15,354 nucleotides of DNA from the IMG/VR virus record IMGVR_UViG_2563366828_000009. One strand, given 5' to 3'. Both the position numbers and the translations under genes were made by a program. The notes beneath the pieces are model-generated. The model was given only the letters and a program-made list of their open reading frames with translations. It was not told the origin of the DNA and searched no databases. Positions 4,768 to 11,921 of the stretch are shown here, in pieces. Every line of letters starts with the position of its first letter. Within the stretch, counting starts at the first letter, position 1. Origin of the DNA: a virus (lineage: Duplodnaviria > Heunggongvirae > Uroviricota > Caudoviricetes).

Positions 4768-4826
4768 TTAAAAACGGCGGCAGAGCAGTCACGGAGTAAA
4801 ACTGATACCGCCAAACGTCACCAGAA
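4768..4826 (-). ncRNA. dicF: DicF small regulatory RNA (Hfq-dependent sRNA of the dicB operon; targets ftsZ and other mRNAs)
   Basis: Reverse complement of 4767-4826 reads TTTCTGGTGACGTTTGGCGGTATCAGTTTTACTCCGTGACTGCTCTGCCGCCGTTTTTAAA, matching the DicF sequence I recall, including the 3' GC stem (GGCGG...CCGCC) and U-tract. Located between the ydfB/C-like region and dicB. Confidence 0.75.
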
Positions 4827-8835: not shown

Positions 8836-10623
8836 TTAAGTCTGAGCCTCACTCTCTTGGCCATAAGTGGCTTGCCAGTATCTCGCCGTAGGGTTCATTA
8901 GAATGTGCAATACAAGCCACCATGCAAAAATGCAGGGAGGTTGATTGTAGTAACCGGCAGGCACATATCCGTGAGCTAGTTGATTTCGTAAATCACCATA
9001 GATTTTATCTACCAGTAAGGCCTGAAGATTGCCAATTATGTCTACGCCGAAAGCTTCAATAATCAGTGGATTATCTAGTAATCCCTTGAGTCCATTTCGC
9101 TCTTGCGAACCGTCCCCGTGAAGCTGCGATGGTTCCTCACCTTTAATTTTAGCCACATATCTCAGACTATTTTCGATCTGGGGAATCAACACGTGGCATG
9201 CCGTCATAAAATCTCCATTGAAACCGCAAACCATACCCTTGATGAAAAACTCTTCATGCCCAAACGGGATGAAGGGATGATTGATGAACATATCGCGAAA
9301 AAACGCCTCCGAGATTGGATATTTCATTGTGATCTCATCTGTAGCAGGAATAATTTGCCCAGCTACTGCCAACTCATGGTCGATACGCATTCTCGTCATC
9401 ATTATGGGCCAAATAACTGCCCCATTTGCATCATCAATCCCCAATCCTGCGGGTATGCGAGCAAGTGTCATTCCCTCATGATCAATATGTGTTGATCCAA
9501 ACATCCAAGCTATGCTGTTGGCCTTTTGTTCTATTGCTTGAGCCTTAAGTCTCTCAATGCTGGTTGGCCGACAGACCAGCATCGCAAGTCTGAAAACCAT
9601 ATCAAACATATCTCTTCCGACTACCCGACTCTTGGCTTGATGGACAATCTCACTAATATCTTGAGGGGGAGACTGAAGGATAGACATCTGGTGACGGGAT
9701 TCGATTTGGTAATCACGCATTTCTTCATACAGCGCAAGACGTTCTATTCGGGTTCCTGGAATATTAGCCAGTGCTTCAATAGCATTCTGCATGCAGGCTG
9801 CCGAAATCATACCGCCATCTTGGAATTTTGACTCTTCCAGATGTGTATCGGCAAGAAGCCGCCAGAATTCAAACTGTGTATCTCTGTCACAGCACCTATT
9901 CGCAATCGTGATTGCGGTTTTACAGGCATCGACGGCAAATGAAAATAATTTTTGAGCCAGATAGTTTTTTGTCAGAAACAGGAGTTCCTGGGCAATAAAA
10001 GATGGCTCACTCACTTTACAGTCGATATCGAGTTGCAGGAGTCGCAGCGGATAAGGTGAATCGCCTTGTTCTCTGGTACGTTCATACTCTGCTAGTAGAT
10101 GTGCCGAAAGCTGATCAAATTCATCCCTGAAATCAGTATTCTTTCGAAAAAAACAACACAGCCTAAGCGCACGCTCTAGGCGTTCTAAAGCACTAACCCA
10201 CGTCCCTTGCGATGTCATAATAGCTATACTGGACGCATAATAAGCACGGACTGCCAGCAAAGGAAAACGGATTCCACCAATTTTACGAACCCAAAGTGTA
10301 TCAGCAATACGAGCTTGAAGTTCGGGTAGCTCTATCGTCGGGCAAAATTGAGAAAGTACCTCCAGCGACAACCCGTTAATGTCATCCGGAATTGCAGATC
10401 TACCTTGGCTGCTTTGAAAGCACGGACCAAATGGTACCTGTGGATTTTCGGGACGAAAGTGAAAACCGCAAATATGGGTTAGCAGTCTTATCTCCGCTCT
10501 TCCATCACCTAGGCTAGAAAGATACTTTGTGATATCAAAGCAGGTAACTGGCAGCTTACTCTGGATTAAGGGGGATAAATCAATAGTGTTAAGTTCGTCG
10601 AGGCTGATATTAATATCGTCCAT
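8836..10623 (-). CDS. large orphan protein (595 aa) with C-terminal HEPN-like R-x4-H motif; candidate abortive-infection / anti-phage effector
   Basis: Long uninterrupted ORF on the strand opposite all flanking phage genes. ATG at 10623 has an AAGGTGA RBS. No Walker A/P-loop visible. C-terminal DLRNQLAHG (codons 8971-8988) fits the HEPN RNase signature R-[N/Q/H]-x3-H. Flanks are AT-rich non-coding DNA (8618-8835 and 10624-10990). Confidence 0.75.
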   Translation of the reverse strand: MDDINISLDELNTIDLSPLIQSKLPVTCFDITKYLSSLGDGRAEIRLLTHICGFHFRPENPQVPFGPCFQSSQGRSAIPDDINGLSLEVLSQFCPTIELPELQARIADTLWVRKIGGIRFPLLAVRAYYASSIAIMTSQGTWVSALERLERALRLCCFFRKNTDFRDEFDQLSAHLLAEYERTREQGDSPYPLRLLQLDIDCKVSEPSFIAQELLFLTKNYLAQKLFSFAVDACKTAITIANRCCDRDTQFEFWRLLADTHLEESKFQDGGMISAACMQNAIEALANIPGTRIERLALYEEMRDYQIESRHQMSILQSPPQDISEIVHQAKSRVVGRDMFDMVFRLAMLVCRPTSIERLKAQAIEQKANSIAWMFGSTHIDHEGMTLARIPAGLGIDDANGAVIWPIMMTRMRIDHELAVAGQIIPATDEITMKYPISEAFFRDMFINHPFIPFGHEEFFIKGMVCGFNGDFMTACHVLIPQIENSLRYVAKIKGEEPSQLHGDGSQERNGLKGLLDNPLIIEAFGVDIIGNLQALLVDKIYGDLRNQLAHGYVPAGYYNQPPCIFAWWLVLHILMNPTARYWQATYGQESEAQT

Positions 10624-10996
10624 GTCGTCACCTTGATGATTTGTTAATGCGGGGGCAACATTAATAAATGTACTTGAGACCGCAATTTGTCGATGGAGCC
10701 AACATTTATAACTATGTGCTTCTACCCTCTGAATTTTTACATGTGAATTGCTAGCTTGAATAGCTCTATCATTATATACGTGGCACTAAATTATGGCTGT
10801 TTTTCGCTCAAAGCGGACTAGAAGGTTAGCTTGTGTCGGACTTTGCGTATTAAAAGAAGTGCTGGTGGTGACTAGTGGTTGTGCCCCATTTCCACAGAAA
10901 AAATCAGAGAAACTATACCCAATAGTTGTATTGAATCACTGACGAGACAGCCTCATATTCATCAGGACTGGTCTACGTCCAATACAGGAGGTTGTG

Positions 10997-11086
10997 GTGC
11001 TGGTTCTCAAATGTGCGCTGGCTATTACGGCTGTAATGGCGATTTATTGTCTTGCTATTGTTCTTATGGATCGCCTTTCTGACTGA
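10997..11086 (+). CDS. possible small hydrophobic peptide (29 aa, VLVLKCALAITAVMAIYCLAIVLMDRLSD)
   Basis: Consensus AGGAGG at 10986-10991, 5 nt before a GTG at 10997. One predicted transmembrane helix plus a charged tail, the architecture of type I toxins and small phage membrane peptides. Frame differs from the 67-aa ORF in the track, which starts at a TTG with no RBS. Confidence 0.3.
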   Translation: MLVLKCALAITAVMAIYCLAIVLMDRLSD

Positions 11087-11297
11087 TTTCATATTGGCGA
11101 GGTAACGGTAGTTAAGTAGAATGGCTGCGGGTGCTTGAGGCTATCTGCCTCGGGCATGAACACCAAAGGCAGATAGAGAAAAGCCCCAGTTAACATTACG
11201 CGTCCTGCAAGACGCTTAACATTAATCTGAGGCCAATTTCATGCTAGACACATGTAGGTTAGCCTCTTACGAGCCGAAAGGCAAGGAGAAGCAGGCT

Positions 11298-11453
11298 ATG
11301 AAGCAGCAAAAGGCGATGTTAATCGCCCTGATCGTCATCTGTTTAACCGTCATAGTGACGGCACTGGTAACGAGGAAAGACCTCTGCGAGGTACGAATCC
11401 GAACCGGCCAGACGGAGGTCGCTGTCTTCACAGCTTACGAACCTGAGGAGTAA
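11298..11453 (+). CDS. hokD: Hok-family type I toxin HokD (RelF)
   Basis: 51-aa product MKQQKAMLIALIVICLTVIVTALVTRKDLCEVRIRTGQTEVAVFTAYEPEE; AAGGAGAA RBS 7 nt upstream. Structured leader with a CTATCTGCC...GGCAGATAG hairpin, and 3' fold-back hairpins plus terminator, as expected for hok mRNAs. Confidence 0.85.
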   Translation: MKQQKAMLIALIVICLTVIVTALVTRKDLCEVRIRTGQTEVAVFTAYEPEE

Positions 11454-11521
11454 GAGACCCGGCGAGGGAGAAATCCCTCGCCACCTCTGATGTGGCAGGC
11501 ATCCTCAACGCACCCGCACTT

Positions 11522-11542
11522 AACCCGCTTCGGCGGGTTTTT
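11522..11542 (+). terminator. rho-independent terminator of the hokD transcript
   Basis: CCCGC-TTCG-GCGGG stem-loop followed by a T-tract; a second hairpin GGCGAGGGAgaaaTCCCTCGCC lies just upstream at 11461-11482. Confidence 0.6.
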
Positions 11543-11669
11543 GTTTTTATTTTCAACGCGTTTGAAGATCTGGACGGTGCCGGAATAGAATCAAAAATAC
11601 TTAAGTAGCGCGCAGGGATAAGAGGGATGGTCCCTTAAAGGGGAGAGCTAATTATCCGGAAGGATTCTG

Positions 11670-11921
11670 ATGATGAACATCGAAGAACTGCGTAAAATTT
11701 TTTGTGAAGATGGCCTCTATGCTGTGTGCGTTGAAAATGGAAATCTTGTTAGTCATTACCGCATTATGTGTTTGCGAAAGAATGGGGCTGCGTTAATTAA
11801 TTTTGTGGATGCTCGGGTCACGGACGGATTTATCTTGCGCGAAGGTGAGTTTGTCACTTCATTACAGGCATTGAAAGAGATCGGAATAAAAGCTGGCTTT
11901 TCTGCTTTTGCAGAAGAATAA
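11670..11921 (+). CDS. rem: Rem-like small prophage protein (83 aa)
   Basis: ATG at 11670 with a GGAAGGA RBS. Length and position (between hokD and the ydfU-like gene) match Qin rem as I recall it; function unknown. Confidence 0.55.
   Translation: MMNIEELRKIFCEDGLYAVCVENGNLVSHYRIMCLRKNGAALINFVDARVTDGFILREGEFVTSLQALKEIGIKAGFSAFAEE

Follow-up and report, generated by a model that had tools for sequence, protein, structure and literature searches.

The window analysed here is a 15,354-nucleotide stretch of prophage DNA (IMG/VR virus record IMGVR_UViG_2563366828_000009; all coordinates below are positions in it unless another accession or locus is named), and our subject is a small open reading frame (sORF) on its plus strand, immediately upstream of a hok/sok locus. 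The sequence AGGAGG at 10986-10991 is followed by a 5-nt spacer (TTGTG), a GTG at 10997-10999, 29 sense codons and a TGA stop at 11084-11086, exactly the arrangement that the original prediction, made from the letters of the window without database searches, had described. The product, VLVLKCALAITAVMAIYCLAIVLMDRLSD, begins with formylmethionine (residue 1), continues with a hydrophobic stretch (residues 2-24) and ends in the tail DRLSD. Its grand average of hydropathy (GRAVY) is 1.74 and its best 19-residue Kyte-Doolittle window reaches 2.58, values that place it among the small hydrophobic membrane peptides; by hydropathy, the architecture first proposed, a single transmembrane helix with a short charged C-terminal tail, was correct.

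The hexamer AGGAGG occurs five times in the window, both strands together. We counted a site as qualifying when it was followed after 4-9 nt by a start codon opening an ORF of at least 20 codons, the product of which holds a 19-residue Kyte-Doolittle window of at least 1.6. Only one of the five qualifies, that of the sORF itself, and 300 dinucleotide shuffles of the window averaged 0.02 qualifying sites each (P about 0.02). The ORF list opens the sORF one codon further upstream, at the GTG at 10994. Relatives replace this in-frame codon by GTC, ATC, GTT or TAT, and the codon at 10997 is GTG in all the pooled copies described below, ATG in Shigella; we therefore place the start at 10997, as first proposed.

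Conservation and translation of the 29-codon frame

We pooled 200 copies of the sORF from Escherichia and Shigella prophages, phages and pINV plasmids, representing 26 ORF haplotypes and 18 distinct peptides. The start, the 29 codons and the stop are retained in 195 of these copies and in 48 of 49 unique contexts, and none of the 26 haplotypes carries a stop inside the frame; frameshift and nonsense changes are absent from all copies. The lone exception is an S30-type allele, in which a 9-nt deletion takes out the stop and adds 6 residues. Frame-breaking indels, which the original prediction had named as an example of what would speak against the peptide, were not found in any of the 92 copies collected solely through their flanks: all 92 are intact, and the sole length change (+2 nt) falls in the leader. 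Four further metagenomic viral-contig loci (five copies) matched both flank anchors, and were set aside as chance matches: their 118-nt interior is unrelated and they belong to unrelated AT-rich phages.

The haplotype network holds 82 substitution events, distributed over codon positions 1, 2 and 3 as 27, 13 and 42. In the sORF frame 44 of these events are synonymous and 38 non-synonymous, where random re-placement of the same mutations predicts 58.5 +/- 4.0 non-synonymous events; not one of 20,000 permutations was as low (P < 5e-5). Pairwise pN/pS is 0.28 in this frame and ranges from 0.46 to 1.37 in the other five. The amino-acid replacements are conservative throughout (A/T/V, I/L/M/V, F/L, D/E/N, R/H and S/T). 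Among the 54 long sequences that include both flanks, variable columns make up 43% of the upstream flank, 22% of the ORF and 30% of the downstream flank; indels in the same sequences are confined to the flanks, with 9 events over 345 columns, and spare all 90 columns of the ORF, a contrast that is weak if taken alone (P about 0.12). Helical periodicity of the conservation was not significant (P = 0.075). These data show that purifying selection acts on the peptide frame.

Two other frames are open across the same DNA in the window. One, of 67 aa, starts at a TTG and runs from 10879 to 11082 on the plus strand; the other, of 39 aa, starts at an ATG and lies antisense, at 10973-11092 on the minus strand, and the annotation of phage HannyBb includes a minus-strand ORF across the sORF stretch. 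Neither behaves as a gene. The 67-aa frame has no Shine-Dalgarno (SD) sequence, keeps its start and its openness in 5 of 48 unique contexts, and has accumulated 68 non-synonymous against 12 synonymous events (pN/pS 1.37). The antisense frame keeps its ATG and stays open in 21 of 37 contexts and is broken by stops in 5 of the 26 haplotypes, at sites that change silently in the sense frame; its pN/pS is 0.59 against 0.28 on the sense strand. The idea that either is the true gene is effectively refuted by this frame breakage and substitution pattern, and we give it practically no chance: both are side effects of a coding frame that is hydrophobic and rich in T. The preference first expressed for the 29-codon frame over the 67-aa frame is thus upheld by the comparative data, by published ribosome profiling and by sporadic annotation. 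Indels break an additional 49-aa ATG ORF just upstream (10793-10942, plus strand), 14 nt long in mEp460 and 1-2 nt long in other relatives; this ORF is non-coding, and provides an internal contrast to the sORF.

Ribosome profiling, one of the checks that the original prediction had suggested, had already been published. The BL21(DE3) allele, VLVLKCTLAIVAVMAIYCLVIVLMDHLSD, is listed at NC_012971.2 1591437-1591524 (minus strand) in the Escherichia sheet of Table S4 of 'The Cryptic Bacterial Microproteome' (PMC11188072), with a TIScounts value of 13, a TISfraction of 1, an RPFcounts value of 38 and an RPFfraction of 0.897 in the retapamulin dataset, that is, a start-site peak in retapamulin ribosome profiling (Ribo-RET) and 90% footprint coverage. 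The same row carries the prediction 'Entero67K', which stands for coding by RNAcode and/or EvolScore (PMC11188072), and assigns the allele to cluster Escherichia_98807, with 389 members, a dN of 0.074, a dS of 0.161 and a dN/dS of 0.46 (PMC11188072 Table S4). Ribosome initiation and footprints are thus shown for the BL21 allele, and the row independently confirms both the constraint and initiation at the proposed start.

Annotation of the sORF is sporadic, and where present it reads hypothetical or membrane protein. RefSeq leaves 10624-11297 without annotation in the identical genome, and among the E. coli genomes that match our 161-nt query the gene was annotated in 1 of 60 sampled. Annotated copies include REL606 ACT39199.1, a Shigella/UniRef 'membrane protein', and WP_000960667.1 of RefSeq in strain GF8. 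The searchable main texts of the literature contain no occurrence of the peptide strings. The Entero67K cluster is the same ORF, one row among 67,297 clusters, and the searchable text and tables of that study hold no individual description, context, name or function for it (PMC11188072). The sORF is therefore already in the databases and in one bulk catalogue, where it stands without name, description or function. Since that catalogue already records the ORF, what is new here is its anatomy, its context and the synthesis of the evidence, and not its discovery.

The surrounding module, its distribution and its neighbours

When copies from diverse contexts are aligned, a compact conserved block of ~175 bp emerges, from about 10926 to about 11100, plus strand. 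Near its left edge lie a -35-like hexamer, TTGAAT (10931-10936; TTGAA(T/G) in 8 of 10 diverse contexts), and a -10-like hexamer, CATATT (10954-10959), which is invariant in the copies retaining the region while the DNA around it varies. The spacer between the two is constant in length (17 nt) and free in sequence, and the predicted transcription start falls near 10964-10966. Such hexamers at a fixed spacing are the pattern expected of a sigma-70 promoter, and we treat them as a putative promoter of the sORF. A leader of ~31 nt follows (10966-10996). It contains the SD sequence and, at 10974-10979, a conserved TACGTC box; it is the only place where full-length copies differ in length, by +2 nt in two of them (L058 and L212) and by -1 nt in Shigella. 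Sequence and allele comparison point to AGGAGG (10986-10991), 5 nt before the start, as the SD: GGAG or GAGG is kept in 19 of 21 upstream variants (AGGAGG, AGGAGA, GGGAGG, TGGAGG, ATGAGG), and the deviants are AGGGGG, in two alleles of which one is common (14 copies), and AGAAGA, in one single copy. The coding sequence itself (10997-11086, 29 codons and TGA) is delimited by the coding constraint, the conservation of its start, the BL21 Ribo-RET and footprint data and the RefSeq entry WP_000960667.1.

The gene is widespread in E. coli. Of 5426 complete E. coli genomes, 2495 contain a match to our 161-nt query from the sORF region; in 1844 the match covers at least 80% of the query. A tblastn search with the peptide, as had been suggested for prophages, recovered the frame in four phages (mEp460, Tritos, Evi and HannyBb) and in 143 plasmids, most of them Shigella pINV, where amino-acid identity is about 71%. 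A scan of one genome per bacterial species turned it up in E. coli, Shigella, E. albertii and E. ruysiae alone, apart from three short contigs of metagenome-assembled genomes that are probably contamination. An exhaustive phmmer search of 1.84 billion representatives returned 9 matches, all at least 83% identical, and therefore no distant relatives; with a 40-aa stop-loss variant as query, a large protein database yielded one relative only. Scans of the peptide against Pfam, PHROGs, NCBIfam and PADLOC assigned it to no family and gave only generic transmembrane noise below the cut-offs.

Several altered copies deserve description. The S30-type stop-loss allele, which would encode a 35-aa product (…FSDWRGRGS), is found in E. 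coli S30 (locus L007, about 2557-2665), in locus L102 and in three other viral-contig copies; its 9-nt deletion also moves the end of the ORF up against the -35 region of the hok promoter. In the ST131-type strain E. coli 81009 (L223, 1490-1540) the last 6 codons (MDHLSD) remain, after QueH. An internal deletion in ET670 (L222, 1480-1580) has removed everything from the promoter through codon 11, and in E. coli B (L221, 1480-1630) the deletion of the B/BL21 lineage fuses the DUF977 gene, in another frame, across the SD and start of the sORF.

The window as a whole belongs to a lambdoid prophage of E. coli that carries rem, ydfU and a Q-type antiterminator; a full-length small RNA, DicF (4775-4826, minus strand; Rfam RF00039, 72.5 bits), marks it as Qin-like. 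The left neighbour of the module is a DUF4209 gene of 595 aa (8836-10623, minus strand), which PADLOC scores as the candidate defence system PDC-S39 (E = 8e-103). Related prophages carry SIR2, QueH, DUF4145 or a 449-aa minus-strand gene in this slot, which is flanked by the DUF977/ren-like gene on one side and the sORF on the other, and from these gene contents it looks like a variable cargo or defence hotspot within the nin region.

On the right, the hok promoter recognized by our promoter scan (TTGGCG, 17 nt, TAGAAT; 11094-11122, plus strand) lies outside the sORF gene, its -35 hexamer beginning 7 nt past the sORF stop. The hok/sok locus that follows on the same strand is complete (11129-11453; Rfam RF01794, 116 bits; RefSeq hokD; ORF list), with the hok/sok leader and sok region at 11129-11303, mok at 11241-11453 and hokD at 11298-11453 (Rfam, ORF list, RefSeq). 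In this it differs from the truncated relBE-linked hokD of K-12, which is an incomplete locus. The stretch from 11086 to the hok promoter was empty in our terminator scan, and any transcript through the sORF would therefore run into hok. The two are nevertheless separable. Intact sORFs are followed by different downstream DNA in L006, L090, L094, L096, L101 and L107, one lineage has unrelated DNA there and no hok, and most hok loci have no sORF, the hok part of the region matching 4768 genomes against 2495 for the sORF part; most phage matches begin at about 11102-11112. We therefore regard the sORF and hok as neighbours, not as one unit.

The same arrangement can be recognized on the Shigella virulence plasmids. 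In S. flexneri M90T pWR100 (L004, NZ_CP037924.1, about 2440-2880) icsP is preceded by an intact ATG-start sORF and by a decayed hok promoter and leader. Every virulence plasmid of Shigella that we sampled has an intact sORF copy in the icsP upstream region, and the much-studied regulatory DNA upstream of icsP therefore seems to be what is left of a lambdoid nin region.

Weighing the readings of the locus

Taken together, the data make it very probable that the sORF is a real protein-coding gene. Our overall picture, which we consider likely on the whole, is of a genuine 29-codon gene with a GTG start, encoding a single-pass inner-membrane microprotein within a nin-region module of ~175 bp. The module (promoter-like hexamers, leader, SD and ORF) sits between a variable cargo or defence slot and, usually, hok/sok. 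Its transcription may come from the rightward early (pR/nin) operon, perhaps supplemented in lysogens by a weak promoter of its own. Judging from hydropathy, the product would form a single inner-membrane helix (residues 2-24), with Lys5 near the N-terminus and an acidic 5-residue tail of the form (D/E)(R/H)(L/F)SD; it may act through helix-helix contact, either by self-association or by pairing with a membrane protein of the host or phage, in an accessory and dispensable role such as transporter modulation or superinfection exclusion.

A number of observations weigh against this picture and temper it. Most copies were collected through protein-level or in-ORF patterns, which favours intact frames; the flank-anchored copies alone are free of this bias, yet they are not very divergent. 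The constraint is moderate, with a dN/dS of 0.28-0.46, and an open frame is not significant by itself, as 29% of the permutations yield no stop. The gene is dispensable, ST131-type genomes retaining only its last 6 codons and ET670 lacking its first 11. The Ribo-RET peak is small (13 reads) and comes from a single strain. Most ismORFs with such signals show no selection (PMC11188072). Moreover, a deletion in the E. coli B lineage fuses the DUF977 gene onto the sORF leader, and for this reason the BL21 ribosome signal is uninformative on the sORF's own promoter. That promoter matches the consensus at 8 of 12 positions, under the threshold of the promoter scan, and the differential RNA sequencing (dRNA-seq) of Shigella M90T has no transcription start site (TSS) at the predicted position (PMC7132871 Table S3). 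The minus-strand TSSs listed there are those of icsP, at 90709 and 90726, and one orphan (91318), which precedes the sORF ATG at 90997 by 321 nt (PMC7132871 Table S3). Because of the 8/12 match and the lack of a Shigella TSS at the predicted site, promoter function is something that we infer from the pattern; membrane insertion, topology, partners and phenotype are likewise inferences.

Could the stretch be conserved as DNA or RNA, for instance as an upstream region of the hok promoter, a recombination linker or an untranslated leader, the frame being incidental or neutrally translated? The block coincides exactly with a mosaic junction, the DNA to either side being variable and the right edge of the block falling inside the hok promoter; the sORF has been lost from many genomes; its hydrophobic T-rich codons seldom mutate to stops (P(no stop) = 0.29); and two hairpins can form in 96% of cells. 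Against this stand the bias among codon positions and the deficit of non-synonymous events, which are confined to one frame, the change from GTG to ATG, which hits the start codon exactly, the published ribosome start-site and footprint signal, and the persistence of the block in contexts devoid of hok. The hairpins themselves do not behave as a conserved element. Folding is no better than that of shuffles on either strand (z = -0.32 and +0.15), the covariation term of the alifold consensus structure is only -1.68 kcal/mol, and the pair counts equal those of shuffles (249/500); on these grounds we rejected the RNA-element reading of the sORF stretch, and we hold conservation at the DNA or RNA level in general to be unlikely. 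A terminator-like hairpin inside the sORF (11021-11040, plus strand) has a weak T-run and no covariation, and is probably due to chance. A related proposal would make the sORF a regulatory upstream ORF, the translation or transcription of which tunes the hok promoter while the peptide is irrelevant. Only 7 nt and no terminator separate the stop from the hok -35, and most sORF copies are linked to hok; but intact copies exist without hok, most hok loci do without the sORF, and selection acts on the amino-acid sequence, so that we find this proposal very improbable.

The remaining alternative is the one that the original prediction had itself raised by analogy, a type I toxin: a membrane-depolarising peptide repressed by a small RNA, antisense or encoded nearby, in parallel to hok/sok. 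The size and the hydrophobic single-helix architecture fit, the prophage location is directly beside a bona fide type I locus, and toxin genes commonly pair a strong SD with a weaker GTG start. The analogy failed where it was testable. Pfam and NCBIfam searches up to E = 10 matched no Hok/Gef or other toxin profile, and BLASTP of the peptide against the window's own HokD gave no alignment at E up to 100. An antisense promoter on the opposite strand had been among the proposed checks: there is no minus-strand promoter-like site in 10500-11700, no Rfam family reaches its gathering score over the sORF, and the M90T data contain no antisense TSS near the Shigella copy, between 90219 and 91397 (PMC7132871 Table S3). 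A novel antisense RNA, made in other growth conditions, is conceivable. A minus-strand sok match at 11045-11187 scores 18 bits against a cut-off of 59, and is probably a chance one. Nor is there a conserved upstream overlapping frame of the mok kind, the 67-aa frame being intact in so few contexts. The folding and covariation tests do not reveal a long structured mRNA with 5'-3' (tac/fbi) pairing. Over 17 variants, the probability of being unpaired spans 0.26-0.68 at the SD and 0.01-0.68 at the start codon, with folding energies equal to those of shuffles, and no common structure occludes either; a hairpin occluding the SD in the minimum-free-energy fold of the window is not conserved across them. 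Furthermore, the sORF is translated in uninduced BL21 without obvious harm. That we found no antisense RNA, no conserved RNA structure and no occluded SD leaves the analogy unsupported, and we do not think that the sORF is a type I toxin-antitoxin locus; the toxin reading as a whole seems to us quite unlikely.

Relation to known small proteins and significance

MgtS (31 aa), KdpF (29 aa) and AcrZ (49 aa) are small single-pass inner-membrane proteins. The sORF product resembles them, as well as YnfT, in its length class, in the one helix that fills most of the protein, in its very short charged tail and in its strong SD. It has the two attributes that define the class at the gene level, a translated ORF of at most 50 codons (in one strain and with a low count) and purifying selection. 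Like the E. coli small inner-membrane proteins found in screens of the Storz-laboratory type, it was detected by initiation-site profiling and is of the sort routinely missed by annotation pipelines. YnfT, of 37 aa, is likewise prophage-borne (Qin) and has its own row in the same catalogue (PMC11188072 Table S4), but BLASTP of the sORF peptide against it gives nothing. Unlike the small membrane proteins of the core genome, the sORF is restricted to Escherichia and Shigella mobile elements, and it is without known partner or phenotype.

With the Hok/Gef peptides (hokD/mok/sok) it shares a small size, hydrophobicity, a prophage- or plasmid-borne location and adjacency. It differs from them in having no homology, no mok-like overlapping frame, no Sok-like RNA or promoter and no long structured mRNA; moreover, the peptide is half as long as Hok and lacks its periplasmic C-terminal domain. 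A third comparison is with the lambdoid morons and nin accessory genes. Here too there is a small non-essential gene between the replication genes and Q, with a mosaic boundary and a promoter-like element, present in functional phages (mEp460, HannyBb, Tritos and Evi). Unlike morons, the sORF has no terminator of its own before the hok promoter, its promoter is putative, and it is far smaller than the morons described.

A bolder reading would see in the peptide an unrecognised effector of the prophage in the host inner membrane, for example a microprotein for superinfection exclusion or abortive infection, or a membrane toxin, acting beside hok/sok at the fixed right border of the defence slot, and possibly also, given the intact copies upstream of icsP, an overlooked product of that virulence locus. 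We mention it as conceivable though doubtful.

In conclusion, the 29-codon frame is best read as a conserved and translated membrane-protein gene, carried by about a third of complete E. coli genomes, by temperate phages and by pINV, and annotated only sporadically in RefSeq. It marks the fixed border of a prophage cargo or defence slot beside hok/sok, and on the Shigella plasmids it falls within the DNA that has been used in icsP promoter studies. Ordinary in kind and uncharacterised, it is a concrete and well-supported candidate for the small-protein field.

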